Notes under the pieces: generated by a model
What the model saw: the letters and a program-made list of their open reading frames with translations, nothing else
The model's database searches: none
Told to the model about the DNA's origin: nothing
Made by a program: the position numbers and the translations under genes
Shown here: positions 10,964-64,000 of the stretch, piece after piece
How positions within the stretch are numbered: position 1 is the first letter of the stretch
Layout of the letters: every line of letters begins with the position of its first letter
NCBI GenBank assembly: GCA_045837725.1
Contig: JBEWZL010000151.1
Location: forward strand, 62,001 to 126,000
Length of the DNA stretch: 64,000 nucleotides
From: Vermamoeba vermiformis
Lineage: Eukaryota
Direction of reading: 5' to 3'

Positions 10964-13854
10964 ATGGAGAAGAAAAGCTACAATAATCAGCAAGCGCCTG
11001 ATATAAAACTAGCTGTAACGGATGATCAGTTTAATTGGAACGAGCAGGAAAAGCTCGCAAAGAAAGATCCAGAACAGTTTATGTATGGCGCGTTCAATTT
11101 ACTGCAGCAAGTTTCCCAAAGGTATGTATAATTATTGTCGTTCGTATAGTACCCAAATTTCAAATTTAAACAATTTTTGAATTTTTTTGGTGATTTTCTT
11201 TTAGGATGGAGCAAAAAGAATAGACTTTTATTAACCGCGTACTTTATCTTTCGTAGCACTGGTATCAAAGTCCAACAACCAGAAATAGTTATTGTAGGAG
11301 GTCAATCAGACGGAAAATCTTCCTTAGTTGAAGCAATAGTCGGATTTAAGTTCAACTTCATTGCAGTCGGTACGTGGCATTACTTTATCACATTTTCGCG
11401 AAACTAATTCTATTGCAGAAATGGGAACTCGCGTTCCGCTCGTTTTGCAATTAACACACGCTCCTGAGTGCGTTGAACCTCGATGCGTTTTTGCTGGCGA
11501 ATCCAAAGTCATTCCCGTAGCAAGTCTCGCAGCAGAGATTAAAGAACGTACTCTTGCTATTACTGGCGGAGATGAAACAGTCAGCTCTAGGCCTATTATC
11601 TTAACAGTTAAGTTCAAGTATAGTCCGAACTTGACCGTAATCGATACGCCGGGCTTTGTTGGCTTAAATAGAACTAAAAGTACGTTATATTGTCAGTATA
11701 TTATTTTTAATATCTTGCTTATATTTAATTCATAGCTGAAATGACTATGGAAGCAATTGATAGAATGGTTGAAGATCTTGTGACGGGTGAAAACAATCAT
11801 CGTATCATCGTTTGCTTAGAACAAGCAACGGTAAGTAACTATACTTGCACCTTATAATAAGAATACATCCGTTTTCTTTTTAAATGTTGGATGCACATCT
11901 GATCCTGTTTTTAGGTTGAATGGCGAAACCCTACAAAATCTCGCTTGTTCGTCGAAAAAGTTGATCCTACATTCAGCCGAACAGTAATGGTCATGACTAA
12001 GTTCGACAATAGATTAGCTCAAATCAAGACTCGTTACGAGCTCGATAAATATTTGTCGACTGGCGGGATCTTGAACCAAACTAAGCCTTTCTTCATTTGG
12101 TTGCCGCATTCTAAGAACGACTACGCTTCTATTAATGAGTATCAACTATCCATCAAGACCGAATACGACAAGATTCTCGGAAAAATGCGCGAGATCGGCT
12201 ACGACCCTTCGTAAGTACCTAGATCTAGCTCGACTGCGAATAATCAACGCTGAAATTAATATAATTATTATAGATTCGATCCACAAATCGGTATTTTCCA
12301 CTTGAAACAGAAGTTGCAAGCGATGTACAAGTCTTTGAATTTGAAGTACCTGGATCCGGTTATCAGCAGTGTGAGCAGCAAAGAACGAGAAGTCTCTAAG
12401 CAACTCGATCAAATTAACGCTAAAATTGCCTCGAGCAACAGCGTCAACATTAAGGCGAAGATTGTTTCAGTCGCCTCAAAGTTCTCTCTCATCGTCGAAA
12501 AGGTTATTGAAGGTAAGGACAATAAAGCATCATATTATATAATTGGATAATAATATATCTATGACACATATTGACAGCACTTGTTAGGTGAAACGAGTGG
12601 AGATCCGGATGCGAACGGGCAAACATTGGATGAAGAAAAAGTTGAAGCGGACTTCTCATGGGAAGCAGTGCCATGGAACAGATATGTTAACTTCGACCTA
12701 GTCCCAGATAAGGCATGTCGTGTCTACGGAGGCAAGCAGTACTCTCGGTTCATGAACGAAGTTGAAGTCGTGATCCGATCAATGGAGATGGGTCCTATCA
12801 GTCCTAACGAGATTGCTACTGCTCTTGGTATTCCTAGATCTCATTTTGTGCCGTCAGTAGGCCACGCTGTAAGTTAAATAGTCTTATTTTTGAATCGCGT
12901 ACTGGATCTGATCTCATTGGTTTTAGGCGAGCACGTTGGCTTTGAAGCACTTTAAGGCGTCTGTAAATAGCCTGTTGCCTCTTATCGCTCAAAGACTTCA
13001 ATATATCGCCAACAGAATGCTGCCAATCGTTCTGATTATCTTCGACAAAGAGAATCCAGATGCGATTGACGAGGCCATGAAGCGAGAGATCTCAACAGCC
13101 TTCGATGGGTAAGCACCATTAAAATACATTGAATTTATAGCTCTAACTATTTGTTTAGCCACGTACAGAAGACGATTGAGAAATGGCAAATGGTCGCTTA
13201 TGGATTGCTCGGCGGATCTTCAGACATGCTCACTACAGTCTCGCATATTGTAGATAGAAACGATGACGATATGTACGTACCGCTAAGCACTTGCTATAAT
13301 TCTATTTCTCTGAAATTTCAACTCAAAATTTTTATCAAGTTTATTTGGTACTAACAAATTCGTTCTTGCGTACAGAGAAAAGGACTTTGTATTGAATCCT
13401 AGCGAAGAACAAGTAGCAGCAAGAGTTAAGAAGGAAATGCAAGCGAAGAACAATTTGATCATCGATAGCTCCAAAGGCAACGACTACCAAACCATTTGTA
13501 AATACTCTTCGTTGATCTTCTCCAAGCTACGTACTCACTGGTTGAGATTGGTCACTGATGTTACTAACGCATTCTTCTTGAACTCTTTGTAAGTCAGATC
13601 CGATCCGTTACAAAAAAGTTCATTTTACTAATTCGCTTGTATTTAGCCGCCATGCTGTTAATGAATCGATCTCGATCAGCTTGTTGAACAAGAGCGATGA
13701 AGAACTCGAGATGCTCACAGCTGTTAATAGCAAGGTACTGAAACAGCAGAAAGAAGAGCTGGATGCGTTGAAAACAAAACTCTCCACGTTGAAGAGCTAC
13801 TTCTTGAGAATAAGAAGCGACTCTTCTATTTGGAAGGACGTAGTTGTAAATTAA
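10964..13854 (+). CDS. Dynamin-related protein, DRP5/ARC5/Dictyostelium Dlp class, multi-exon
   Basis: PEIVIVGGQSDGKSSLVEAIVGFKFN..EMGTRVPL, PNLTVIDTPGF, VMTKFDNRL and YGGKQYSR match the DRP5A-type GTPase domain; the splice junctions checked (first and last introns) are in frame; ATG 10964, TAA 13852-13854. Confidence 0.92.
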
Positions 13855-22518: not shown

Positions 22519-24334
22519 CTACAACTTGGCTCTAGGCAAGGTTCCAACGATCTTTCCAAATTGAGTACCGTCTTTCATGGTCGTTTTAATAGCATTAGCG
22601 AGATCAGCCAGGCTATTGACATTAATGTCCACTAACGGCACCATTTTGTTCTTGGAAATAAATTCCATCATTTCTTTGAAGTCCCTAATAAACGAACATC
22701 AGTTTTGTACTGGATCCCGTTACGCATCAAAACAATTTTGAAACAATATTAAATGTCTCTTATATATACATATATATATTCTGCGGCTTAACTAAAATGA
22801 CTATATAACAGTAACTTACTTATCGCTGCCCATTGTTGTACCGAGGATCTTCAACTGGATCAAGAACACTCGGAACAAATCAAATGACTCAGGCTTGCCA
22901 TTAGTAGCTCCATATGTAACAACAGTACCGCCAGGCTTCAGTAGCTTCAATAATAAATCGAATTGGGGTCCGCCAGATCCGTCGATAATCAGATCAAATT
23001 GACCTTTGGCTTTCTTCAATAAAATTTTCTCCCAGCCCTTCCAAATTACATTAATATTACGATATTTATAATATACGCGTATATAAAATAAATTTCTGGT
23101 TAATTTATGGTTCCAATTTGAATGAATGTAAAGCGAGGTTTTGGCGCATCTTGAGCAAGTATGTAGTTTCCTTTTTTGGTAATAAACCTTACCTCTGTCT
23201 TGTAGTTGACACCTCCGACAACTCCAATCTTTTTCTTTGCCAATTCGATCTTATGTTCATTGCCAGAAGTGACCCAAACCTCTGCCTTTCCAAGAACGCT
23301 AAATTGAGCTGCGAATTGACTCACGCCACCTCCGATGCCTGTAATCAATACCTATATATCAAATATAATCAATATATATTACTTTCAACAGTTCTTATCA
23401 CTCGTGTCGTTCGCAGCAGATCCATGTTTGACACGTGTCAAAAAGATTAATTTTGTCGTCCAGAACAAGGCTGGAAAGGACCTCGTTAAGATATTGTTTC
23501 CGTACCTTCTGTCCAGGTTTCAAATTTCCTTTTTTGTACACGGCTCTGAATGCTGTCACGCCTGCCACTGGAATGCACGAGGATTGTTCGGGGGTCAAAT
23601 GCTCAGGGGCCAGGTGTAACCTATCATCGACTTCATCAGTATAACACGTTTTATAATATAAAGGCCGGCACCTATAATATATTAATAACATACCTATCAA
23701 TATCGATTACGAAGTACTCGGAAAAAGCACCCGGCAAAGGAGATCCAAGCATCTGTCAAAAAATTGATTACAAACTGCTCAATAACAAATATCGAGTATT
23801 ATAATAATATGCGTATACGTACCTTGAACTGTAGCGAATGAGTTTCTTCGTTATCGCCCCAACCAAAGGCCGGATTTGCGATCACTTTTTTGCCCAACAA
23901 GCTCTTATCGCTCGTATCAGGACCTAATGCCTCAACAATGCCACAAAAATCTGAACCAAGGATTACTGGCACCTGAATAATAGCTTGTCAATTCATGAAG
24001 ATTGAGACAACAAAACACAAGGCAGATCCCAGATCCCCCCTCCGCTAAACTTAAGGCTGTTCCAAATTATATTCATAAATATAATATTATATTATATTTA
24101 TATTTTCGCTTTATTTTCCGATTCTTAATGCGTACGCAGTAGTCGACAAAATATTATTATTACCTTCAGATTCGGGTACATTCCCTGTGTAATCCAAAAA
24201 TCTCTTCTATTAAGTGATACGGCTAATATTTTAATTAGTGCTTGATTTTTGCCTGGCTTGGGCATTGGTAGATCTGTTTTTACTTCCAACTCGAAATTTT
24301 CGTTAAACAATAGGCCCTGCATTGTGCCGCTCAT
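22519..24334 (-). CDS. Medium-chain dehydrogenase/quinone oxidoreductase-like (MDR) protein with PTS1
   Basis: AVSLNRRDFWITQGMYP, ILGSDFCG, IPVAGVTAFRA, ITGIGGGVSQFA, LKILGTTMGS, QFGKIV; ends in -AKL*. Confidence 0.92.
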
Positions 24335-26938: not shown

Positions 26939-29900
26939 CTAATCCATCGTCATTCGTTGTTTTAATCCGCTTCGGAGGTCATCCAATCTCGATTTACCGG
27001 ATCTAAATATGGTAAAGCCACTGCACGCGACAAACTTTGCAATAATTTCATTGTAAATTAATCCTATTGAATAGAATGCTACCGCAGCATGCCCAAAGCC
27101 CATATGTGCCGGCTCTAACGCCGCCACGCGATTACATTGCATCGCTGTATTTAGCTCGAAAAATCTTGCGTGACCCATGTCAAACTTTTTCAATAGCTTT
27201 GCAGCGTGTTGAATCATAGAGGAGCTTGTAGTGCACGATCAGTAAACGAATAGCCATTATCCATCTTTCAGGAAACGGAGTTTGATGGCGGATGGCACCG
27301 CTTCACTCCAGCAAGAATTACGCGCGAAGGAATAGGAAGCGGTGATTACGATTCTTTTTAAACATGCGTCTTTTAATGTTTAAGATTGAGCGAATTCCAC
27401 CACAAGCCCGCGGTAGAGAATTAAATCTTCTGCATGGCCACAACATAATTCTAGCACGTGTAACACCACAACAATCTTGTTTTTCATCCACGTCAAGTGC
27501 CTATGAAGCGGTGTTGTGCTTCGCAACGTAGTATGACGCATACGATCAGTTGCAAAGATATAGTAAGGACTCGGCGGGTATGAAAAGTGCATGTATGACG
27601 CGGATCTGAAAACGCTTTTGTTATTGTACTAAAAGTATCAAGACTTACGTGTGCGAAACAAAAACGGTGTTTTTATTGTTCTGTGGACATCCCAAAGAAC
27701 TTTTTGAACTTGGTTTTCAAGGAGTGTTTCTGCCTGTCTTTTTCTTCCTCGTACCGATTCGCTAACCGCTTGTTTCCTTCGACCAACGTAAAGCCTACTA
27801 GTAATATGTATATTGCTGGATCTACTGGCTTATGAAGGTAAATGTCTTTAACGAAGAAGGCCCATCTGTACTCGGCTTGTTCATGATACGGATTAAAGAC
27901 CTAAATAATACCGTATCAGTATAATATCTTACGAGAAGCCATCTTGGTATTATATCTGTGTATAGTATAGTTTCGGTTAAAAGATTGCTTTTGCAGATTG
28001 AAAGACTGAAGAAAACTCAACCGGATCCTCTGCGCTGAAAGAAATTTGTGTAAAAGGCAAGAATTTGTGACATTGCCTTCGCGTTACATAATGTGTACGT
28101 GACGAGTAAAAATAAAGAATTAACACCAAGTTCTCGATTGGATCTGCTTCAAAGAACTTACGTGAACAGCCGGTATTAATGTCCTGCCTGCGGATCCGAT
28201 AAACTGATCGTCTGGCGTCCAAAATGTCATATCGCGTAGTCCAAAGCTAAAGGCCTCCTTAGCGTGCACTAAAGTAACCGAGTCCGCTGCGTCTCTGTTA
28301 CAAATCTGGTGAGATTGAACTGAGCTTCAACTCCGCATCTGGCTTACCTGATCGCAAAGTATTTCTTCCTGCCCTTGCCAGTAAGGTACACTATATTTAC
28401 AAGCTTGCCGTCTACATCTTTGATTTCCATTTTGTCTTTCAACCAAAGTTAGAAATTTAAAGTCAAGTAGCGGATCGGCCGAGGCCGTAACTCGACTTAC
28501 AATTGGATATCTTTCCATAATACATTATTTCAGACCCTTTGTAATAAACGAGTTCATTATGCCGAACGTAAGTGACCTGATCAGATGTAAGTAAAATTAG
28601 GCGGAAATTCAAACTCGCTTAGTTTTACGAATAACTTACTGACGATAGTGCCCTAGAATGCATAAATACATCTAGTAACAGTCCTATCTTCGGATTGTCG
28701 CTATTAGCAGGTGAGTACTGTTCTGCCTCGAAAATCATTGGATAGTAGCTTCCATCCGGCGTGATCTGGTCATAAATTGTCAGCATAAGTCTAATTTATG
28801 GCTTTGTATATATGACTACATACCTTTCTACCGAAAGTAACGACTTCAAATCGCTCTCTGTACAACTTGGCTATGTCCGGCTTTTGTAACGGCAATCTCG
28901 AAAACATTTCATCGATGACCGACTCCATGTCCCTATTATAGTATTGTTATCAACCACATATACGTATAAAGTATTCAAAAATTCGAACAAAAAGTTTTGT
29001 AGAGCGGATTTGGCTCGTTGAAATTCAAATGTACCTTTCTTCCATTAGTTCTTCTTGCAGCTTCTCCCAATGATACATATAATATTTTGCATTGCGTTCT
29101 CTCCAGCCTTCAGAAGGTGTTTCAGGCACTGTATAAGCCATTCTCATCGTGTAACGGGACGCCTCTGGATGTGGTTTTGACACGTCATAATATTCCTCTG
29201 CAAAAGTGCTTTGCTTCGTCTGGCCATGATCGTGCGATCTCCTTGTCTCGTGGTATGTACTCGAACTCGTATAAGTCTCCGAACCTGCCGCGTTGGTCGT
29301 TGTATGCTCCGCGTAAGTAGCGTGGATGTGGTGACTGTGCATAACGGTCTAAAATATCAATACATCAGTATGTGGTAGTAATATTATCTCAACAGGCTAT
29401 AAGTGCTTACCTCGTAAGCCATTCGGAGCTCTACGAACTTGCGTTCAGCTTCTGGTGATTTGTTGAGGTCCGGATGAAACAGTTTCGCTCGCTTGCAAAC
29501 AAAACAACAATGTTAGCTATAAAAAGCAACTTTGGACGTGCAAATGTCCCTTGGTACCTTAATGAACGCCTTTTTGATGTCCTTCTTCGATGCTGAACGT
29601 GTAATGCCTAACAACTCGAACGGATCTGACGTGTTGCCAGAAGCAGCATAGAAACGATGGCAAAATTGCGGGACTAATTAAGGTAATATTTTAATAATAT
29701 TTTCGAACTACTAACGACGCTATTATCGCTTCTCTCTAATTGAAAAAGATTTTCTGAAATTACTCGAGATTGTTTGCCCTTACAAAAATTATTAAAAACA
29801 TCAAAATAACGCCTCAAGGGAGGCACTATGATATACTACCCAAATTTAAAATAATTATCGCTAAAATAATATTAGATTGCTCGGGTTTGAATTTCGTGAT

Positions 29901-30278: not shown

Positions 30279-33200
30279 ATGTCGATGTTCGGGAGGATTA
30301 TTATTATACATAAGGTACGTATTGAAGAGTTTTAAGTGGCTCGTTGCTAAATCTTCATCCAGAACGGTAAAGATGGGCCGACTTATTTCTTACGCCAGAG
30401 GCTTTGCACTATTGGAAAGTAAGTCAATATTATTTAATATAAGAGTAATACATATAACTAAACGTATTGATTTTAAAGGAGCCGTAATTGTAATATTCGA
30501 ATGAATTTGGATGAGGTCGCCGATCAACATGCCTGGATTACTGTGGATTCTAAAAACCAAGTAAGTTGTCAAATATAATATGCTGATTTATTATTATACG
30601 TACCCGTGCCTGTGTCTTGTTTGGATTCTTATAAACTGTTTTAGGTTTGGATTGCGAATTCAAGCGAGGGCAAAGAGCTCAAAGTAAATACGCGACCTGT
30701 ACCACCCGGAGGAAAACCAGCGATGCTGCATCATAATTCAATAATATTTATCGAGGGCAGAGCGTTCCGTTTTGAAGAAGGTAATTATTGCGTGATCACA
30801 AGCAAAAAATTCTTAGAAACGCACATTTAGTGGTTTTTGCAGATACCGTGCATTACCTTAATTGCTTTAAGTACATGACAATAATAATCGAACTTTTTTC
30901 GTACACGTTGACGTGTATTCAGAAGTTATTCCGTCGTGTTGCTGATCTGTTTTTTTGCAGAGTCGTGCTTGCAAGACAAAACCGGTTCTGATGCAGAATC
31001 TCCCTCCGAGAATATTGTCGTGGACAATAGTCCAGTGAAGGAGAAGCGACCAGTAATACCGGCTGCAGCAGACCAACAAAACAACCCGAGCAAATCCGAA
31101 CAACAAGCTGCGCCTTTACCTGCTGCTAGAACGAAGCTGAGTAGTGGACATGATCGTAGCAGTAGTGGCGAGAATAGTGCTAGTACTAAGGTTGGCACGA
31201 AGAGAACTCTGGCGCAGAGCTTTGATCACGTCGAAAGTTCGCCTTCGAAGAGACAACGAACGGATGCGGCAGCTGTATCGCGCTCTGCTGAAATCGCACT
31301 TAACAGCGGCATTGGCAAGCAAAAATTGACTGCGGTTCGCGAAGAGCAAGCAGCAGATCCAGCACCTCAAGTTTCGCCAACTAAAACGAATCCGCTTCAC
31401 AAAGTTCGGTTCCTTTTGCCTGGGCAATCCACGGAGCCGCATAAACCACCGAGTAGCAATTCCAACGGCAATGAACCTGGAAGCAACAATTCAATGAGCG
31501 CTCCTACCAGTCCTGTAAAGAGCAAATCTGGCCGCATCCAAAATTTCGATGACTCACAGAACGAGAGTGGCAGTGGTGCTGTATGGATGCGTAAAATGAA
31601 GAAGAAACTCGACGATGACGACGAGGAAGATGAAGACGACGATAATGGCGTGACTTCCTCTGAATTGGATCGCATCTCAAAGAGTACTTCGCCGGCAAAA
31701 CGAGGCTCGAAGTCTCCGAAGAAAGAACGCACTCCAAAGAAAGAAGATAAAGATAAGAAGAAGAAGGCCTCCACTCCTTCAACTTCTCCTCAAAAGAAGC
31801 GACCTCGATCTCCGAGCCCAGATTCAAGGTCCAGCGAAGAAGAGAGCGAGGAAGAGCGACAAAGCAAATCGAGCAAGAAAAAAAGTGCGAGTAAGGATAA
31901 GAAGAAGGACAAGAAGAGCTCTAAAGACAAGGATACTCTTCAAAGCAAGATTCGCAACATTGAATCCAGTACGATAAAATCAAAATCGAGCAAGAAGCGA
32001 AAGAACGAAGATAGTGACGAAGAGGTCACTAAAAAGTCCAAATCGAAGCATAAGACAAGTAAGAAGTCGAAATCGGCCGAAAAGGATCGTCATCAAAAGA
32101 AACGAAGTCTTCGCGTGCGCAGATCGAAGAAAAAAGTCTCTTTGAGCTCTGAAGAATCGATCTCTAGCGAAGAATACGACTTTAATAGTGAATCAGAAGA
32201 AGAGAGCAGTAGCGAAGAGGAGTCTGTTAGTTCTGTTTCTAGCAGCGATGACTTCCAAGAGTCGCCTAAGAAGACCAAATCCAGCTCGCCGAAGAAACGA
32301 AAAGTTAAAGAGAGCTTGGAGAGCATTAGCGAAGAAAGCGATAGCGACGAGAAACACAAGTCAAAGACTAAGAAGCGTAAATTGCAAGTTGAGCCTGTTA
32401 AGCCAAAGCAATCCACATCCGCCAATCACTCGCCGACAAAGACTAAGAAAAAAGAGCCTAGTAGCGACAGTGACGTATCCGGAGAAGTGCAACACGAGTC
32501 TCGTCAGAGCGAGGAGGACGAGAATAATTCAAGAAAAGAATCGAAAGAGACTCGTAGAGAGTCTTTCAAAGCTTTCTTGAAGCCCTTAGCTCACAGAAAG
32601 GCTACTGAAGTGGTTGTTATGAAGGAAGAAGTAATTGAGAAAGAAGACGAGGCTGGTAAGAGGCCCCTAAATAATTCCAAAGGGATCGCGTACTGACTTT
32701 TTTGGATTCAGATGCACCAACTTCCTTCCCTCCAAATCGACCAAGGACGAACCAAACCTATTCTAAGAAGGATAGAGCCGAGGTGAACGTTAAAAGCACT
32801 ATTAACCTTGCACCAATCAAACCCAATCCTGCTGCGGATCTTGAAGAAGAGCTTGAAGAGCAGATCGAAGAAGAGGAACAACAAGACAATGGCTCTGAGT
32901 TCGTCAAAATAGGCAAGAAGGTCCAGTTCAACGACAAGCAGCCTTCACCTATCGCCGTTGATTCTGTTAGCGGCAGTGCTAGCTACTCGTCTCATTCGCA
33001 ATCTCAAAGCAGATCTGCTATTCCAAGTTTCCTCGAAACACAAAACCAAGGCAAGAGTTTCGTAATGGTCCATGGCCTGCCTTCTCAAATGACTCAACGA
33101 CAATCACTGTACTCGCCACAACTTTCTCAGTCTCCTTCAAGTGACCTAGAAGGCAATGCTCATGCGAGTAAAGATGAGGCCGCTGAAGGTCACGAAGACA

Positions 33201-35310
33201 AAGAAGACAAGATGGAGCTGGAGAAGCAAGAAGCAGCTGAGATCCGTAGCACACCCGTGCCGAGACAGTCTCAGCAAGGTGCTTCAATGTGCTTGTTTTC
33301 TGATGCCAAAGAAGACGAGTACGACGACAATAACAATGTCAGAAATAACAATCACGAGGATAAGATGGAAGAAGATTACGATGAAGATCAAAGCACCCTT
33401 GTTGTTGATCGCGTTGATAAGAGCCAACATCTTATTAATAACGAAGAACACGAGCATGCACACGATCAGAGTAACACAAAGTCACGTGACCAATCGTTGA
33501 CTGAGCTCATGGAGGCCTCTACATTGATCGTAGACACCGTTCCTGATACTCCTATGCAAAGACAAGGCTCACGATCGATCTCTAAGTCCAAGTCCAGCGA
33601 GTCAGTCAACACGAGTCTGATGAGCCATGAAGGCAATGTCAGCAGCGCCGCTACGAATCCTTTGAGCCTCGGAAGCAGGAGCAGCAACACAGCCAAGCTA
33701 GATGATACTACACATACTACTAGCACGTCTATCGGTGCTCAAACTAGTGCTGGATCCTCGTATGAAAGTCTGTCGATTGAAGAAAAAATCGAGTTTATCA
33801 AGCCAAAGATGAAAACTGAGGAAGTTAACAGCATTGATGATTTGCAGAAAAGAGTTATTGTTGCATTTCATGAGTTAGGATGCGACGAGCCTCAATTACT
33901 TGACGATATTATTAGGACAGCTTCGGAGTAAGTTTTAAGTTTATTCGCCTAAAAAGGAAATATTAATCGAAATATACTTTTCAAAGATTATTGCCCGAAA
34001 ATTACGTGGCTAATACGCCAAGCTGGCAAACCGATTTAGCGACTGCTATGATGCCTTTAGTATCGAACATTATCATTTCTGATGTTCAGTACTTTAAGCT
34101 GAAAGCTCAATATAGAAAGAGCAAACAGGCTAATGAACGTGAGCATGAACAGTTTGACGAACAAGAAGAAGAACAAAACGAGCAGCAGATCGAGAACAAT
34201 TTTTCGTTCATTCCGGTCAAATCCGCTTCACTGAACGGAGCTAATAATAGCAACATCAAGAGTCATAGCAGTAGTAGCAGATCGCCATCGATTCCGTTGC
34301 AGTCTATCCAATCATACGAAAGCGATCAAATTGCAAATGTTGCCTCGATCCCGCTCAATGCTGGCGGAAAATTCTCGCAACATTTTGAAGAGCCACGTGA
34401 TCAAATGAACGAGGATGGAGAACAAGATGAGCAATTTAGCGAAGAGGAGGTTGCAAATGAAAATGACGACGAAAATGAACGGGATCTGCAGCAAGAAGCG
34501 AAGAAAATGACGAGTCAAAATATGAGCCAGAATGGATTGAAACTAGTGAATTATAGCAACAGCGAAAGTGCGCACAATAATCATAGTAACGATCAAGAGC
34601 CACGGCCATCACCTTCTGATGAAGAAAATAGCGAGCAAGAGGAAGAAAAAAATTCTCAATTTGTGGCGCAGCAAAAACTCAGCCAGAAAGAGCTTGAAAC
34701 GCAACATTATTCTCAGAATAGCAGAAAGAGCTCAAGTCATAGTCAGGGAAGTCGTAGTGGGTCGCAACACAGTCAGCCTAAGTTGAACGAATCTGGTTCA
34801 AAAGTGCGATCTGCAACGGATCAGCTGCGAAGCGAACTTAACAAGGGCATGGATATATTGAAGTCTATTGTGGTCAAACAGAAAGAACCTAATGCTATTC
34901 GCAAATGGAAACGAGGTAAGTTACTTGGATCTCCCGGATTCCACCGTTCTAACTGATCTTGTAGAGCTTAACATTCAACTCAGAGGCAATTACTTGCTAT
35001 GCGGAGGCCTTAAGGATAATGGTACGATATTGACTATATTGTTATTGACATTAGTACTAACGTTGAGTTTGTTACAGAGGTGCGGATCTTGCTTCAGGTT
35101 TTGTTGGACGAATTGCCCGATGTGAGTTTAGAGTTCATTGTCTCAAAATTATTTTCAACGGCTGTAGTCACTATCATGCTCGCTAGAAATCCAGGCACTA
35201 AGCACGAAGAGGTCATGCAACAAGTTGGTGAGAGATGTGTTGCTTTGAAAGTCGTTGGAGATGACGTCGCTGATTGGCAGTTGACTGATGTGCTAAATAA
35301 GGAAGGATAG
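30279..35310 (+). CDS. Ki-67-like protein: N-terminal FHA domain, about 1300 aa of mostly charged low-complexity sequence, small C-terminal domain (~1480 aa, 9 exons)
   Basis: Exons 1-4 give MSMFGRIIIIHKNGKDGPTYFLRQRLCTIGRSRNCNIRMNLDEVADQHAWI...LHHNSIIFIEGRAFRFEE; the long ORFs at 30936, 32702 and 33991 splice in frame; KVRF and KVQF motifs present. Confidence 0.85.
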
Positions 35311-35390: not shown

Positions 35391-35987
35391 TTACAGTTTA
35401 CTTCGAACAGACGATGAAGTTAACAATGGATCAGTATTTTTGTTACTATTATAGTCAGTACTTGTTAAATAATAAACGGGGTGCATCAATCCTGTTGGTG
35501 GATAAAGTACGGTGCCCATCGGTGTCATTTTTAAGTGTTTTGTAATGACGGATCTGGATTGGTTGTTCTTAGGATGATGCAAGCTAATTATTTTCGGTAT
35601 TTTAAGCGTATTAAATGTATGATTTAAAACTGCTGTTGTTGCTTCGGGTGCGATTCCTTTACCCCAAAATTTTTTGAGCAGATGCGCTCCCATTTCTATT
35701 TCGCCAAGGATAGTAGAATATACAGCATGAATACCACAGCATCCAATAAACTCGCCCGTTGGCCTATAATACATTGCCCAATATTGCAGACCGGATTTGT
35801 TCAGCTCGTCCAATTCAAGCTCGAATCGTTTCTGCACTTTTTCTTCGCTAAATGGTCCTCCTATAAGTGCTGTAACGTATTCACTGCCCCATAGCGTCTT
35901 TGCGTTGTGAATGTCGTTGGGTGTCCAAATCCGAAACTCGATCCTATCTGTTGGCGATGGAACATCAGATGGATATTTTTGTGACAT
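35391..35987 (-). CDS. GNAT acetyltransferase (RimJ/RimL-like), intronless, PTS1
   Basis: TDRIEFRIW, FIGCCG, EIEMGAHLLKKFWGKGIAPEA, HHPKNNQSRSV; ends in -SKL. Confidence 0.92.
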   Translation of the reverse strand: MSQKYPSDVPSPTDRIEFRIWTPNDIHNAKTLWGSEYVTALIGGPFSEEKVQKRFELELDELNKSGLQYWAMYYRPTGEFIGCCGIHAVYSTILGEIEMGAHLLKKFWGKGIAPEATTAVLNHTFNTLKIPKIISLHHPKNNQSRSVITKHLKMTPMGTVLYPPTGLMHPVYYLTSTDYNSNKNTDPLLTSSSVRSKL

Positions 35988-36490: not shown

Positions 36491-37060
36491 TTATTTTGAA
36501 CTTTTTGATGGTTCTAATGCCATATTCTTATAGTCAGTATTATTAATGTAATATACAGGGTGTCTTAATCCAGTTGGCGGATAAAATACGTCGCCCATGG
36601 GCGTCATTTTCAGTTTGTTCATAATGATAGCTTGCGAAGCCTTATTATTCGGATGATGGCCAGCTATAATTTTAGTATATTTAAGTGTATTAAATGCGTG
36701 GTCTAGAACTGCTAAAGCTGCTTCAGATGCGATCCCTTGGCCCCAATACTTTGTACAAAGGTGATAACCGAGTTCTATGTCGCCAGGAATAGCCGAGTGC
36801 ACAGATTTAATACCACAGCATCCAATAAAGTCGCCTGCTGAGCGATCGTACATTGCCCAATATTGCAAACCGGATTTGCTTAATTCATCCAATTCGAGTT
36901 CGAACCGTTTTTGTATTCTTTCGGGTGTAAATGGTCCTCCTAATAATTCTGTTACTTTATCGTCGCCCCATAGCGCTGTTGCGTTGTGAATGTCATTGGG
37001 TGTCCAAATCCGAAATTCGATCCGGTTTGTTGGCTGTGGAACGAGGTAATTTTGCGCCAT
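36491..37060 (-). CDS. GNAT acetyltransferase (RimJ/RimL-like), intronless tandem paralog
   Basis: DIELGYHLCTKYWGQGIASEA, GHHPNNKAS, YPPTGLRHPVY; clearly paralogous to 35391-35987. Confidence 0.92.
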   Translation of the reverse strand: MAQNYLVPQPTNRIEFRIWTPNDIHNATALWGDDKVTELLGGPFTPERIQKRFELELDELSKSGLQYWAMYDRSAGDFIGCCGIKSVHSAIPGDIELGYHLCTKYWGQGIASEAALAVLDHAFNTLKYTKIIAGHHPNNKASQAIIMNKLKMTPMGDVFYPPTGLRHPVYYINNTDYKNMALEPSKSSK

Positions 37061-37759
37061 AATATGTCTGACCTATAAAATAAATTGATCAATAAATATT
37101 CGCAATATTTGATTGTGTTTTAACGGTTCCATGATGCCGTTATTGACTGGATCCGTCACAGCATTTGTTTTTAACGTTAATCCTCGTGCATGTCATTAAT
37201 AAATATGTATTTAATTTCATAATTGAAGTAAAGCAATTAAGACTGCTTCGCTAAGCCGGATGGCGTAAGTGCGGATCGGGACCGAACGTAAGTGAGTTTG
37301 TAATTGAGGGCCGAACCGCAATTGCTTGATAAAACATTAATAACGAATATCATACCGTTATTTGATTGCTGGAAGATGTTGTGGTCTTGGGTCCGATCGG
37401 CAAATTTATTCTGACGCATTTAGCTGCTCTAACTGCATCGTTTTTCGAGGCAAATTTCGACTTAATATAAATAAATAGGCCTTGAATGCATTTGGCGGCG
37501 CATTTTGCCTTCATTAAGGTAATCTAACAGTCTGTTCATCTGCGGATTGTAAGAATGCAAGAATTTCAGCGGCATAATGTCGTAGCTGTATGAGTACAAT
37601 ACTTGGAATTACCGGAGTTGTGTCGGATCTAATCAACTCGGCAAAATTTGCGAGTTTTCAGTGTTTTTTTTCCTTTTCAGCCGGGCCCGTTCAATTTTTG
37701 TCACTTTCATTCCCGAAATCAACCGTAAACAACACCTCGTATATACTTGTTAATTCACT

Positions 37760-48800: not shown

Positions 48801-50720
48801 ATGTGGGCCTTAAAGAGTACTTTTGAATCGATCAAGACGAAGATCAGTGGATCGAATAACAATAATACCGAAGAAAATGCACCAAAAGAGACAGATCCAG
48901 AAATCATAAAAAAACAGGAAGAAGCTAGCAAGCGTAGGAAGGAAATGGTAAAGTTTGTAAGTGCAGATCATGTCATTGAAAATTAATTAGATTTTTTCTC
49001 ATTAAATATTTTTCTTAGGGTCTCACCAACATTCTCGCATTCGGCGTGAGTCATATAACTAAGGGGCACGTCCCAAGAGGTAAATTAATGATAGTGTTGC
49101 AATTAGTATATCCGTAAAAGAAATAATTGCGATCAGATCTAACTTTCTATTTTAGAAGCTGTCAAGAATGCGATAGAAGTAGGTTGGGATGCTACAGAGC
49201 TTACGATAGAAACAAGTAAGAATATGATCTTGCTGACGTGGTTAAACACGCGCATAAATTATTCTTACGTGGCAGATCGGGATCTGAACTTATACGCAAA
49301 TTTTTAGGAAAGGAAGTCAACGAAGTCAAGCTATTTTTAGCTAAACAAGACGTGGAGTTCAATGACTTGCGATTCTTCCAACTTGCAGAGCTATGCGCTT
49401 GGCTCTCTTATCACGCTTACGAACCAAAAGACGAATCTGACGCGATGCCGGTTATGTTCAATGAAAAGGTCTCGTTGAACTTTAAATATAAAGAAGTGCT
49501 CAAGTTAATGGACAAGCACGTGTTTTGGTTCGTAGCGCAAGATAAGACGAGAAACATCGTGTACATTGTGTTCAGAGGCACGAGCGTGGCTGGAGATGTC
49601 GTAATAGACCTATACGCTGATCTTCATGCTGTAAGTACTCTATAACAAACGTGTTTATACATACTATTATGGGTGGCAAGTCTATTGTTATTAGTAATTT
49701 TTAACCGAGATCCGCTATACGGACGGTTTTAATAAGTAGTAGTTTGCGCTTTATGTCCATTGAATAATTCGAGCTTTATTACAGGATGATATAGTTAAAG
49801 ATTATATGGCTCATTCAGGCATCTATCAATCTGTTCATAAAGAACTGGATGCGATCAAAGAAGCGATCAAAAACTGCGATGTTAACGAGAAGACTTACTT
49901 CGTGCTGACCGGACATTCGCTTGGCGGAGGATTAGCGACAATGTTGTATACTTACCTGAAGACTAAGAGCGAATACCAAAACAACCGAATGATCGTAATA
50001 ACTTTTGGCGCGCCTTTGGTTTTGGCTCCGAATGATAATGGTACTAAATATACACCATACAATATTAAATATAACAGTTATTTAGTTATATTTCGATGGT
50101 GCATATTAGACGAGCGATCATTAAGTTAATTTTTGTAGGTTGGCCCGAGACACTTCAAGCGATCTCAAAGGACGTCCATAACTTCGTACACAACGCTGAT
50201 ATTATTCCTCGTGTTCTAGGCAACGAGAATGTCAAGTTATTGCCAATGATAGTTGGGGTAAGCACTACCATACCGAGTTTGACACGTGTCAACATGTCAC
50301 TTAACACAGATCCGTGTTCTAACCGAAGCATTTTTTCTTTATAGTTGTTAAAGAAGACTGTTGGCGAATCAGGTGCCAATATGCTATTAGAAGGCCTGTC
50401 TATGAAGGGCGAAAAGTTTGAAGAAAGATTAGGAAAGTACCGACCGTACGGCGAGATCTACTTGCTTTATGGCCAAGACAAAGTACTTCGCGCATCAACT
50501 GACGAAGAAAAACGAAAGATTTTATCGCTTCCTGCGGTGGTACGTCATTTTTTATATCATTTTAGTTTGCCCGACAGAGCTGATCGAGATTTTTTCTCAG
50601 TTGTGTTTTGAAGTTCTTACGCAGCCTAAGAAGGTCTTCGAACATCATGGAATAGGCTTATATTTGGAGTTTCTTAAAGCGACAGTTGTTAGAGAAAAAT
50701 TGAACAGCAACAAAAGCTGA
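48801..50720 (+). CDS. Class 3 lipase (alpha/beta hydrolase), multi-exon
   Basis: YIVFRGT, AHSGIY, VLTGHSLGGGLA, ITFGAP, FVHNADIIPRV, and a C-terminal HHGI His. Confidence 0.92.
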
Positions 50721-51154: not shown

Positions 51155-53662
<2,508 letters not shown>

Positions 53663-54419
53663 AATATTTTACTATCAACACTGAACTCGTACATTTGTAA
53701 ATGCTAATAAATTTTTGCTGTCAATTTGACCTTGTTTGAGATTTATGAATGGCCGGTGTTTCTTTGCGTTGAAGTAAAAATTGCCCGAGGCAAAAAAAAA
53801 GAAAAAGATCGTGGCCAACGGCTAGCTTTTTCATGTTGCACTAACACTTGATAACACAACTAATAACATGAGGTATATTAATATATTATTGGCGGAGGAA
53901 TGATACCCAACCACTCGATCAAAACTCAAAAGTAGGCTTTTCAACAGAACAAATTAAATAATGCTAGTATAAAGAAGGTGAAATTTTCCGCTTGGAAGGT
54001 AAATTAGCTTCGTTTTTGTTTACGTGATTTCGCAAGATGAGATGCATTCAAACCAATTTAATTAATTCGTTTATTTACTGTGGTGAGTGAAGATATTTTT
54101 ATAGATATCTATTTTTCGAAAAAGTGACATTGGGATATATAACCAATTTTATCTTCACGACATCTAATTTTGATCTGATTTTTTCTTTCTAAATGTAGAT
54201 TGTAAAATGGTGTTTTTATCCATTAATTACATTTATTATTCATGAACATAAATCTACTCGTTTTCTCCGCCTCACGGCCGGTCATTAGACTTCCAAATTG
54301 TCCCGCGGCGCTTGCGCCATTTTTAATCGGACAATTCAAATTACTCTAAGCAATCCAAATATTAATACGACCACACAAGAGCATAGACTATAGACTATAT
54401 AATAACTAATTTTATATTC

Positions 54420-57025
<2,606 letters not shown>

Positions 57026-57384
57026 CAAAAATCGTTTTTGCAATTTGATTAGCACGAACGATTTTTTTGATCATATTGTATTGTATAGTACTTGTTTTAT
57101 TTTCGAAATAAAATGCCAAGTAATTCGGCCACTACAATTTGAATTTACGGATTGGCCAGATGCGAATATTTATTCATCCATGGCATATAATATCATATGT
57201 ACGTATTTATAACGTTGAATTAGAGATTGATCAGAGCAGAAAAATTAGAATTGTAGTTAGCGCGCTTCCGTACAACTTTAAATAACTAGTTATTCGACAA
57301 TGCCGACAAATCACAACTCACCGATAAGGCCATGCATCGTTTGATGAATTATTTCCGTCACTAATCGAAGGTTGGGTCGATTAA

Positions 57385-58636
57385 TCACGACTTGCTTTCC
57401 CATGATATATTCGATTCTCCTTCTTCAGCGTAATCAGAAACACAACCAGAACGGATAATTGATCCGTACAATCTGACCAAAAAATAATCATAATGTAGTA
57501 AATTCGGAGAAAGATTCTGACCAGTGTATTATATTCTGATCAATATTAGACTTGAATGTAGTTCGTGCGCTCTTGCGAATAACAACCACGCAATAAGACA
57601 TAATTACTGCAGCCACAATACCAGAGATGATTAAACCCCACATTAGCTATGATATGAAGCTGTCCTCTTTAGGTAAGACTCAAGAAAAAATAAAATTAAA
57701 ATACTTGGTACAATTTTTTTAAAATTTTAGTAATTATATATTCAGCTTCACTATTGACTTACTTCTCCAAGTAACTTCTGCGAAGCTCCAATAACGTCTC
57801 CACGATTTGTAGCCATCAAACATCAGCCAGACGACTCTCGTTTTCAATCAAAATGTGACCTCTTTAAAGCATAAAAAAACCACTAAGGAAAATGAGAGAG
57901 ACGACCTAAGCGTAAGTTACCCTCGCCACAGTAACCAACATTCGGTTGTTGCATTGAAGAAGTAGAATACTTTGCATTCGACGCCAAGGCACGAGAGAGC
58001 TACGTTAGTTCTATTTATGTTCGGGTTGTTGCCGATCACGTACAAAGATCTGATCAGAAAATTAATTTGGTTTCAGAAAACTCTATGATAGTGATACATA
58101 CGTATAAGCTACGGTCACATTAATATCTCCCGTAACATTTTTGTTTTCTAATTGTAGCGTAGTGAAGACCTCTTCATTTCGCGGAAGCGGATGCACACAA
58201 GGATCTAGTACAATTTATTAATTAATTGTAAATAAGCTAAAAAAATCGTGCAATTACCGATCGTATCGTAAGCACTGTTTGAATCAGACCAAGCGCTCGA
58301 ACCCATGGTTCGAATAGAAGCTAAAAATGACTACAAAATTATTTAAATTAAAATACTATTGAAATAATTTAAAATCATAATAATATCGCTTACGCTGAGT
58401 ACGACCCCATCTTTATTGATCACTCGCATAGGCCCAATATCAAGGCTACTTTGGCTAGTGCCGCTAATATTCCAAGAAAGTTTCCAACCGAACTGACCGC
58501 CCAGGCTAGTATAATTGCGAGCTTCGTTGAATTTAGTCAAACCGTCCAATGAATAGGGAGTATGAAATATATCCAAATCCGCCAGAGCGCATCCGACAAA
58601 AACGCCAACTAGCAAAAAGAACGTATTTGACTTCAT
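57385..58636 (-). pseudogene. Probable pseudogene of a single-pass membrane glycoprotein
   Basis: Signal peptide MKSNTFFLLVGVFVGCALA and TM LMWGLIISGIVAAVIMSYCVVVI are present, but there is an in-frame TAG at 57647-57649 and a stop or frameshift near 57850. Confidence 0.6.
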
Positions 58637-58864
58637 GGTTTCCTTTCTTAGAGAATCTTGTTGCTCATTAATAAGAACGAAAATCCGTCTATTTAAGCTC
58701 AGTACATATTTCGCAGTAAGGAAAAGTCTTACGAATAAGTTTAAACGCCATTCTCAAATTTCGATATTTTACGAAAGACGTGATAAAACTAATGTTTTCA
58801 TTTACTACAAATACAAGTTCTAAAGTACATAATTATATACATATTGGCAGAAAATAGCCGAAAT

Positions 58865-61511
<2,647 letters not shown>

Positions 61512-62227
61512 TATAATATGAAAAATATAACCTCAGTTGTGGTCTACCTAACTGAATATGAAATTGAATGACGAGCGAAACATGAAATTAGCTTTTTATC
61601 GGTTTGTGTCGAGCGGAACAATTTTCCAAACTGAGTCAAAAAAAATCAATTGGGATATTCGTGGAGATCAAATTTGTGCAATCTTTGCTGCGAGAGGAAT
61701 ATTCTCCGTGATTAGCTGAGATTTGTCTCACCGTTAATACAAGAACAGAAACTTTGCCATGCTTCACTTGACACATCCGCATAGTATTCTTTCATTTGGA
61801 TACCAACGTGACTACCAGTATAAAAATATACGGATTACTACTCCTCGGATGCTTTGAGAAAGAACATTCGGAATTTGATCGAAAATTCGATTAAAATTAG
61901 CGATGGGTTCTTTCCCAGCGTACAATCCCCAAACCCCATCTTACAACAACATAATTGTTGCAATTTATCCAACTGACATTTTTCAAGTGATTAAAGTTAT
62001 AAACTGTAATATTAATTGCGCGGCAAATTAGATTAACGAGGCACAGAATGTAATGGATGGGAAATTGAATAGTCTTAACCGACGCTGAAGTTTATTATTA
62101 ATAATCATCCCTTTCTAGTACTTCTTTAAAATCTGTCTAACCAGAAATTTTGGCCGTATATGGTGGTGCTATTTGAAATTTTAAGCTTGGTGTTCTAAAT
62201 TTAAAGCTCAGTTCCGCTTCGATGTCG

Positions 62228-62265
62228 GTATTTACCTTACGAGGAAGTATTTACCTTACGAGGAA
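62228..62265. repeat. 19-bp tandem duplication GTATTTACCTTACGAGGAA x2
   Basis: Read directly in the K3-K4 intergenic region. Confidence 0.9.
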
Positions 62266-62437
62266 TCACGTGGGACAATACACCCAAATCATAAATTCGA
62301 AATCACCAAAAATGGTAATCTGATAACATACTGCCCAACAATTCGTAAGATTCATTCATTTTAGTACACTACGATTTACTATTACATACAAATTGAGGCT
62401 AATATTACAATGAGGTTGATCAAAATAAACGTTTTTG

Positions 62438-64000
62438 TTACAAGTTGATCGATTTAAGAAAACCAGATGCGATGTTTTTGTACCTCCAAATATCACCTTC
62501 GAGGCGCTTAAACTTCAATCCCTTTAAGTTCTTAAAGTCCTTCATCTTCACAATCTCAATATCAAACACGATCTTCTCGGAGGTCGGATCCGATGCGTTG
62601 TTGAGAAGTGTCATTTTGAACTCGTACTTTGACACTTTGTCGCATTGAAGTGAGCACTTTTGAGCAGCTGAAATGATCTTCTTTTTGATCTCTTTCGTCG
62701 ACTTTGATGACGTCGTGTCGCACTTGAACGACGACGACAGTTTGAAATTTCGTTGCTCGGAGTCAAAATTTTGACTGGCTTGGCCTTCACTTGCAGCAAC
62801 ATTCGACGAGTTATTCAGTGAACGGACAGTTTGTTTCGGGCTCTCTTCATGAATCTTGTTCATCGTCCAAAGGCCGGACGGATCTCGATCCAAATACGCG
62901 TCAAAATTGATACTTTCGCCAGACGACGCGGTTGAGGTGCCAGAGATCGTGTTACGTTTAGCTTTTTTATCAGTAATTCTCCTCTTCATAAGCTTCTTTT
63001 GTGTGGCTTTACTGCTCTTAGTAATGTCGTTGATGATCTGATCCAGTTGTGCTTCGAATTTGTCCATCAAATTTTTGGCGTCCTGTTTGCCCTCCGCGAC
63101 AGCTTTTGCAAAGTCTCGTTCGCCCAAACTGAATTACCATATTTAGTATAGGTCCCGAGTACTCTTAAGGTACGTATATTATACTGACCTATTCTTTTTC
63201 TGTGAGTCTCGGAGGTGTCTCCGAGTGTGCACAACGGTCTCGGATAAAATTTCTTCGTTGGAAAAACTTCGTTTTAGCAACGGAGGTTGCAACACGGATG
63301 AAGGCTCGCTACTCGCTTTAGAACTATTCAGTTTGCTTATAGTAGGTGCTCTGATGCGACGACTTGGTGATAACGGTCTTCTACTTAAGCACAACTGATA
63401 CGCGGTGACAATTTGTTTGTTGTTTTTGTTCTTCAAAATATCACGGCGATTCGCTTGAGTATCGTCAAAGCCCAATGCAACGACTTCACGCATGATTTGT
63501 TCGTCGATTTGAGTCACGTGCTTGAATACTGGCACGTATGTCTCTGGTGGATTGCGATGCAACTTCAAGATCCAAGGATGAACGCGGATCTCGCTCAATG
63601 TTATTCTTTTCTTCGGATCTATTGCCAACATCCTCGTAATTAAATCTTTAAGCTCTAAAAACGATTATTAGTACTTAATTTTTGATTCAAAACACAGAAT
63701 TTTTAGCGTCGGAAATCTAAATTTTACCTTTTGAAACTTCAACGTCAAACTGAAGTCCCTGGTTAATTCTTTTAAGCATTTCGTAGGGAGTATCAGCATC
63801 AAAAGGTTGTCGGCCATTAACCTGTAAAATATTGCATCAGATCGGTTGATCCGAAAAATTTCAGATGCGGAAGATCTACGACCCTAGATCTGACTTACCA
63901 AGCAGTACAATATGACACCAAGGGCATATATATCTACCGGAGGACCTCCATATACTTGCCCATGCAAAATTTCCGGAGCCGCTAATTAATATAAACGGAT
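62438..64000 (-). CDS. MARK/KIN1-like kinase K4 (5' part outside window)
   Basis: [24 protein letters not shown] region identical in protein to K1, KA1 core identical to K2. Confidence 0.92.

Follow-up and report, generated by a model that had tools for sequence, protein, structure and literature searches.

A nine-exon gene of Vermamoeba vermiformis encodes a Ki-67-type FHA domain and a probable member of the Ki-67/bridgin group

Here, our analysis of a 64,000-nucleotide stretch of Vermamoeba vermiformis DNA (NCBI GenBank assembly GCA_045837725.1, contig JBEWZL010000151.1, positions 62,001 to 126,000 of the forward strand), hereafter called the window and numbered from its first letter, revealed a nine-exon gene on the plus strand, at 30279-35310, whose spliced reading frame is open and specifies a protein of 1479 residues. 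We consider it probable, at roughly 60%, that its product belongs to the Ki-67/bridgin group, that is, a disordered nuclear scaffold regulated by cyclin-dependent kinase (CDK), with a Ki-67-type FHA domain at its N-terminus and an RVxF motif that docks protein phosphatase 1 (PP1). The window protein fits the loose Ki-67-like family, yet it is without several traits of Ki-67 proper, namely the repeats, the KiR-SLiM, the basic isoelectric point (pI) and the basic tail. The suggestion of an initial annotation of this DNA, that the protein is a deep homologue or an analogue of Ki-67, is thus borne out as far as the FHA type, the RVxF block, the CDK sites and the charge blocks are concerned, but not with respect to the KiR-SLiM or an overall basic pI.

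The gene is confirmed as a real one, with a clean nine-exon model that includes four small exons. All eight introns run from GT to AG and measure 48, 60, 84, 180, 56, 59, 49 and 56 nt. The FHA-coding first 103 residues come from the four small exons, each of 36 to 136 bases: exon 1 (30279-30314, residues 1-12) provides the start codon and the first FHA strand, exon 2 (30363-30418, residues 13-31) ends on Gly-Lys in place of the FHA Gly-Arg, exon 3 (30479-30560, residues 31-58) carries VADQH, which is the S-x-x-H site with Ala, and exon 4 (30645-30780, residues 59-103) completes the domain. Exon 5 (30961-32655, residues 104-668) then contains the conserved short motifs, followed by a block rich in Lys, Ser and Glu, and holds all 11 full CDK sites. 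Exon 6 (32712-33927, residues 669-1074) encodes disordered sequence of acidic character (pI 4.7) together with half of a helical region, here called A, while exon 7 (33987-34915, residues 1074-1384) supplies the remainder of region A, an acidic and Ser-rich linker and the start of a second helical region, B. Exon 8 (34965-35021, residues 1384-1403) has the same boundaries in a more distant relative (L003, a 3022-base contig with a gene about half as long), and exon 9 (35078-35310) includes the stop codon, TAG at 35308-35310. On re-splicing, the coordinates that the initial annotation had assigned to the start, the stop and the motifs KVRF (31401-31412) and KKVQF (32915-32929) proved exact.

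Support for the splicing pattern came from several kinds of relatives. Contigs from a relative 90-99% identical to the window (X1, from a run whose RNA label is a guess) contain joints that excise introns 1, 2 and 8 exactly at the predicted GT..AG sites (30312 to 30361, 30418 to 30479 and 35020 to 35077, respectively), and a loose contig end at 30562 runs on with the first bases of exon 4. Two other sets were uninformative for splicing, as X3 had no reads placed and X5 had five partial reads of 90-95% likeness. A metagenome relative was found twice (L001 and L002, identical over 685 aligned bases and counted once), and its exons 1-4 are identical to those of the window at 267 of 310 bases without a single gap, compared with 182 of 379 bases and 55 gap columns for introns 1-4; exon by exon, the identity is 31/36 (exon 1, gap-free), 47/56, 78/82 and 111/136 bases. 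In L003, seven introns are seen at matching positions, all of them GT..AG, together with a matching start. The start Met is kept in L001, L003 and P0008, a public library protein that holds the complete spliced FHA domain with an equal start, and a counterpart of exon 4 is present in L001, L002 and L003 as well as in the public proteins P0001, P0003 and P0008. Spliced contigs, exon/intron conservation, the introns of L003 and P0008 therefore all bear out the earlier claim that the FHA domain is hidden in four small exons. For the closest orthologue, the public model (P0001, 1418 residues, 68% identical over exon 6) begins at a Met inside exon 3, so that the first 38 FHA residues, the product of two and a half exons, are absent from it; it is named 'hypothetical protein' and carries no precomputed Pfam domain, its annotation being without an FHA domain because the latter sits in such small exons.

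That the model wrongly joins two neighbouring genes, one short and coding for the FHA domain and the other coding for the long disordered protein, we regard as very unlikely. Such a fusion would be compatible with the X1 contigs, which have no joint across introns 4-7, the exon 4/5 junction included, with a further contig (X2) that keeps intron 4 unspliced, and with the start of P0001 inside exon 3. However, the exon 4/5 junction is in frame in P0001, L001 and L003, P0001 itself links exons 3 to 9 in agreement with our model, and L003 holds the FHA domain, the motif block and regions A and B in one frame with matching introns. Moreover, the frame of exon 4 runs into a stop 50 bases into intron 4 unless this intron is spliced, and the contig that retains it looks like DNA. 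As a separate observation, an X2 contig covers 30610-31035 unspliced with two differences and is preceded, before 30610, by 36 unrelated letters; it may stem from a strain whose intron 3 differs, or it may be chimeric. A second public model, P0002, reads through intron 3.

As judged by sequence similarity, the FHA domain of the window protein is of the Ki-67 type, by a wide margin over other solved FHA domains. The subfamily comparison was made against solved structures only (PDB chains) and went through P0008, which matches PF00498 at E=6.7e-12 and 46.1 bits (cut-off 20.7) over profile positions 1-66 of 67, and to which the window's four FHA exons are 67, 67, 56 and 42% identical. When P0008 was compared with all PDB chains, the human Ki-67 FHA came out on top (1r21_A at 1.4e-12 and 2aff_A at 1.5e-12, both with 50.7 bits), while the next match was a mycobacterial FHA at 1.2e-3 and 21.5 bits, followed by CHFR, KIF13B and Rad53, among 25 sequences at E<=10. 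Residues 1-72 of P0001, which represent the final two thirds of the domain, gave two PDB hits at E<=10, and both were Ki-67, at E of about 0.07. The alignment to the Ki-67 N-terminus that the initial annotation had drawn by eye is upheld by this difference in score, and our own count, made through the P0008 alignments, places about one third of the positions of the window FHA as equal to those of Ki-67. Within the clade, the FHA domain is 94% identical to that of P0001 and shares 74 of 103 residues with L003, and it starts 4-5 residues after the Met in the window, L001, L003 and P0008. At library scale, an exhaustive phmmer search with 72 residues of the domain, a query too short to reach Ki-67, returned 16 hits at E<=0.001, which comprised the true relatives P0002, P0003 and P0008 and one bacterial multi-FHA protein, P0015. 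The other hits, nine NHL-repeat proteins and three proteins with other families, were made up of several weak stretches and were rejected as relatives. A word-based library search with the P0008 FHA at longer lengths found nothing.

Downstream of the FHA domain, conservation is concentrated in short islands. Over residues 104-310, 60 of the 146 aligned residues are identical to L003, and only three islands stand out. One of them, SP[VI]KEK (31029-31052, residues 127-134), is a full CDK site in which at least six of eight residues are identical to L003. Another, VG.KRTLAQSFD..E.SP.KRQR (31188-31265, residues 180-205), consists of basic clusters flanking a CDK site and may resemble a nuclear localization signal; P0008 has a similar KRT...SPKRHK stretch. 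The third, LHKVRFLLP (31395-31421, residues 249-257), contains the candidate PP1 site KVRF (31401-31412, residues 251-254) and lies 148 residues downstream of the FHA. This island is identical in P0001, reads HKVRF in L001 and LHQVRFMLP in L003, and is kept in three lineages as LH[KQ]VRF[LM]LP. Its RVxF-type motif would most likely dock PP1. The initial annotation had proposed two RVxF motifs; the first thus stands in a conserved block, but the second, KKVQF (32915-32929, residues 737-741), has the form KKVTF in P0001 and does not occur in the distant L003, from which the surrounding segment is absent. A third match of the RVxF type, KIEF, falls within a helical region and is absent from P0001.

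The many S/T-P-x-K CDK sites noted earlier are strongly enriched. The protein has 11 [ST]Px[KR] sites, all within residues 127-594, compared with 2.2 expected, and none of 2000 shuffles reached 11; for the minimal [ST]P site the count is 23, where 14.5 would be expected, and 0.95% of shuffles reached it. SQ clusters, which had also been reported, did not hold up: SQ/TQ dipeptides showed no enrichment (19 vs 17.9 expected), and 43% of shuffles reached 19. The alternation of Lys-rich and acidic blocks is present when the pI is taken segment by segment, with a value of 9.51 and a net charge of +20 for residues 311-668, followed by 4.7 for residues 669-1015 and 4.5 for residues 1126-1345. Tandem repeats in the gene are short and at the codon level only.

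The acidic segments are separated and followed by two conserved regions. Region A (33752-34110, residues 1016-1115) is split by intron 6 (33928-33986); 94 of its 100 residues align with L003, 29 of them identical, and the intron is placed alike. Region B (34789-35307, residues 1342-1479), which is spread over exons 7, 8 and 9, is the best conserved part after the FHA domain, being 82-90% identical to P0001 in 50-residue bins and sharing an LLCGGL island with L003. Both regions are thus interrupted by introns at positions shared with L003. Neither has a relative in Pfam, the PDB, the Atlas or the library: the whole of P0001 gave no hit against the PDB at E<=10, a word-based library search with the C-terminal region returned P0001 only, and an Atlas feature search with the C-terminus gave no usable hit. 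Two AlphaFold2 runs provided no confident fold for these regions, with a mean predicted local distance difference test score (pLDDT) of 38.9 for the last 461 residues of P0001 and 43.9 for the last 144, and both models were all-helical at low confidence. The C-terminus is thus a conserved module, predicted at low confidence to be helical, and not a basic tail. Regions A and B may supply targeting or self-association.

Several results weigh against placing the protein in the Ki-67/bridgin group. When searched singly against Pfam, the window exons gave no FHA match in any of six pieces; the weak matches obtained, all below the cut-off, were to ScpB, saccharopine dehydrogenase, BSP_II and PknG_TPR (E 0.03-0.6). 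The truncated P0001 reaches 14 bits against PF00498, under the cut-off of 20.7, and because of these two outcomes the FHA call for the window rests on its relatives. In the Atlas feature search, the P0008 FHA was placed nearest to a generic 'FHAD1 fragment' cluster (0.94) and not to a Ki-67 cluster. Matches of the RVxF type are weakly above chance, at 3 vs 0.86 expected, with 5.3% of shuffles reaching 3. The L003 version of the candidate PP1 site, HQVRF, fits a looser pattern, [HKR][ACHKMNQRSTV]V[CHKNQRST][FW], which reportedly goes back to Meiselbach et al. 2006. It fails the strict pattern [RK]-x0-1-[VI]-{P}-[FW] applied in a June 2026 preprint (10.64898/2026.06.18.733134). The KiR-SLiM, FDxxLP(P/A)N(T/S)PL..., which follows the RVxF motif and defines the PP1 binding of Ki-67 and RepoMan (PMC5005033), is absent: the window protein and the L003 model contain no match to FD..LP, nor to the relaxed form F[DE]..[LIV]P. 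Neither the PP1_bind nor the Ki-67-repeat family of Pfam matches the window exons or P0001 at E<=10, and self-comparison gave no off-diagonal match at E<=0.01 and hence no internal repeats, in line with the initial annotation, which had seen no Ki-67 repeats. Finally, the protein as a whole is acidic (pI 5.81, net charge -29), and residues 1346-1479, with a pI of 7.95, do not form a basic C-terminal domain.

The phosphothreonine pocket belongs on the same side of the balance. The canonical FHA residues are G, R, S, H, N and N ('GRSHNN'), as stated in the cited part of the preprint (10.64898/2026.06.18.733134), and three of these six are changed in the window protein, which has G30, K31, A45, H48, K68 and N73; the residues were assigned by alignment through P0008 to Ki-67, which is least certain in the loop. 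The pocket Ala in place of Ser is common to the window, P0001, P0008, L001 and L003, and the loop Asn is replaced by K, Q or H in all relatives seen. L003 and P0008 retain the pocket Arg, and Lys (codon AAG) is found in the window and L001 only. The Ser to Ala change at S-x-x-H, pointed out in the initial annotation, is thus confirmed as VADQH, and with the changes of the loop Asn and of Arg to Lys the pocket is more degenerate than had been described. On these alignments, the phosphothreonine pocket appears degenerate across the clade and further so in the window, which suggests that the FHA domain probably holds its partner through strand pairing, or in a mode with no more than a weak dependence on phosphate.

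In our preferred interpretation as a Ki-67/bridgin-group protein, the order of the parts, with the FHA domain, an RVxF-type motif about 150 residues further on, disorder rich in Lys and Ser and filled with CDK sites, and then acidic disorder, would suit a scaffold in the nucleus that is controlled by the cell cycle. By phosphorylating the basic block, CDK would alter how this block is charged and how it binds chromatin or nucleolar material, and docked PP1 would remove such phospho-marks at mitotic exit. The FHA domain would hold a partner protein, probably without canonical phosphothreonine recognition, while the conserved helical regions A and B would occupy the place that the basic tail takes in bridgin and Ki-67. 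More tentatively, it is possible that the clade represents a distinct branch of the Ki-67/bridgin group, in which the FHA domain has moved away from canonical phosphothreonine recognition and the basic tail has been replaced by a helical A/B module, perhaps a new chromatin, kinetochore or self-association domain.

Other functions can be proposed for the same set of parts. The least improbable of them, although unlikely in our view, is that of a lineage-specific nuclear or nucleolar FHA phosphoprotein that is not a functional counterpart of Ki-67, whose RVxF motif would not be a PP1 site and whose C-terminal helices would carry the function. Ser/Glu and Lys blocks of the kind seen here resemble those of many nucleolar proteins, region B, for which no relative is known, comes close to the FHA domain in conservation (82-90% vs 94% identity to P0001), the phosphothreonine pocket is degenerate, and the RVxF count is marginally above chance. 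Against this stand the margin of 29 bits by which Ki-67 outscores all other solved FHA domains and the LH.VRF.LP block, which is kept amid diverging surroundings, as well as the position of the FHA domain at the extreme N-terminus, shared with all homologues reported in the cited portion of the preprint (10.64898/2026.06.18.733134). Also unlikely, and rated just behind, is a protein of the same family that acts as a kinetochore linker in the manner of bridgin, through its FHA domain and disordered region and with its basic segment on chromatin, and not at the chromosome periphery or in the nucleolus. The order of parts in bridgin does match, from the N-terminal FHA domain through an early PP1 docking site to a long unstructured region, and bridgin function is described in the cited section of its report as needing a segment of net positive charge and not a specific sequence (PMC7794384), a demand that the strongly basic residues 311-668 of the window protein could meet. 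However, this basic block is central and not C-terminal, the C-terminus is predicted to be helical with a pI of 7.95, and repeats of the bridgin type are missing from the window protein.

An FHA domain combined with an RVxF motif is also the layout of NIPP1, a protein of roughly 350 residues. Since the window protein likewise has an FHA domain followed by an RVxF-type motif, it might be read as a PP1 regulator of this type, acting in splicing or transcription. We find this highly improbable: the window protein, at 1479 residues, is far longer than NIPP1, and the list of 25 PDB matches at E<=10, which Ki-67 heads, contains no chain named NIPP1 or PPP1R8.

The surroundings of the gene hold a mixture of other frames. 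Directly past its 3' end lie two frames on the minus strand, at 35391-35987 and 36491-37072 (198 and 193 residues), which match Acetyltransf_3 of the GNAT type at E=4e-22 and 4e-27, respectively, and appear to be intronless tandem paralogues. Upstream, at 29384-29677 (minus strand), short frames resemble pieces of a J domain by eye, with an HPD-containing stretch, and in L003 the upstream gene ends (bases 1-215) in what looks by eye like the C-terminus of an inosine triphosphate pyrophosphatase (Ham1-type). Further away, at least four kinase genes that end in a KA1 domain (MARK/Kin1-like) are clustered at 51389-63664 on both strands, with KA1 hits at 53012-53662 (+), 56291-57025 (+), 58865-59875 (-) and 62438-63133 (-) and kinase-domain pieces adjoining them. 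Exon-sized frames match the dynamin N-terminal domain (11340-11732, plus strand, E=1e-10) and a zinc-type alcohol dehydrogenase (22819-23250, minus strand, E=3e-11), and another frame matches a class 3 lipase (49764-50126, plus strand, E=4e-15). The dynamin, dehydrogenase and lipase frames have no evident connection with the Ki-67-like gene and count as ordinary neighbours.

That Ki-67-like proteins extend beyond vertebrates has been recognised recently, and the gene is a well-supported further example. It likewise illustrates how such genes stay hidden, with an FHA domain divided among tiny exons and a public model that is truncated and without an annotated domain. The half-length gene of L003 marks the parts that are under selection, namely the FHA domain, three short motifs including the candidate PP1 site, and the two helical regions. 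If the degenerate pocket and the helical C-terminus are functional, the clade would show how far partner binding and targeting can change while the layout is kept.

Among known systems, Ki-67 itself (MKI67; 1R21, 2AFF) shares with the window protein an FHA domain at the extreme N-terminus, a downstream RVxF-type motif, many CDK sites and a long disordered body. It differs in having repeats, the KiR-SLiM and a basic chromatin-binding end, none of which is found in the window protein, with its acidic pI of 5.8 and its predicted helical C-terminus; the pocket Arg, Ser and loop Asn of Ki-67 correspond to Lys, Ala and Lys in the window, and Ki-67 is 3256 residues long compared with 1479. RepoMan (CDCA2) is similar in that an RVxF-type PP1 docking motif sits within a disordered, CDK-regulated chromatin protein (PMC5005033), but it has the KiR-SLiM and no FHA domain, whereas the window protein shows the reverse.

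The parallel with non-vertebrate proteins is drawn here from description and not from sequence comparison. Bridgin (Bgi1) of Cryptococcus neoformans, as described in the cited part of its report, has an FHA domain at residues 1-124, a putative PP1 docking site at residues 161-164 and a long unstructured region that includes an acidic unstructured domain with 13 repeats, followed by a basic C-terminal domain of pI 11.2 (PMC7794384). The window protein resembles it in its FHA domain (residues 1-103), its early candidate PP1 site, its long and partly acidic unstructured region, and the presence of a basic segment. The basic DNA-binding domain of bridgin, with a pI of about 11, is C-terminal and the protein has repeats, whereas the window protein has its basic block in the middle and no repeats, and its residues 1346-1479, at pI 7.95, are predicted to be helical. 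The same part of that report names Ki-67 as the metazoan homologue of bridgin and mentions bridgin-like proteins outside fungi (PMC7794384). The June 2026 preprint, in the portion cited here, describes Ki-67-like proteins from a wide range of invertebrates and from three fungi, as well as from Capsaspora, Monosiga, Thecamonas, Dictyostelium and a thraustochytrid, and recognises them by an N-terminal Ki-67-type FHA domain, one or two RVxF-type motifs, disorder, S/T-P sites and charge, while admitting negatively charged members (Drosophila) and members without predicted NIFK binding (10.64898/2026.06.18.733134). This list of features is shared with the window protein, but it does not, in that portion, include conserved helical regions at the C-terminus. 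The view of the initial annotation, that the combination is characterised mainly in vertebrates, has thus been overtaken by bridgin (PMC7794384) and by the preprint (10.64898/2026.06.18.733134). The architecture is already in print outside vertebrates, and the Vermamoeba vermiformis gene adds a member to it.

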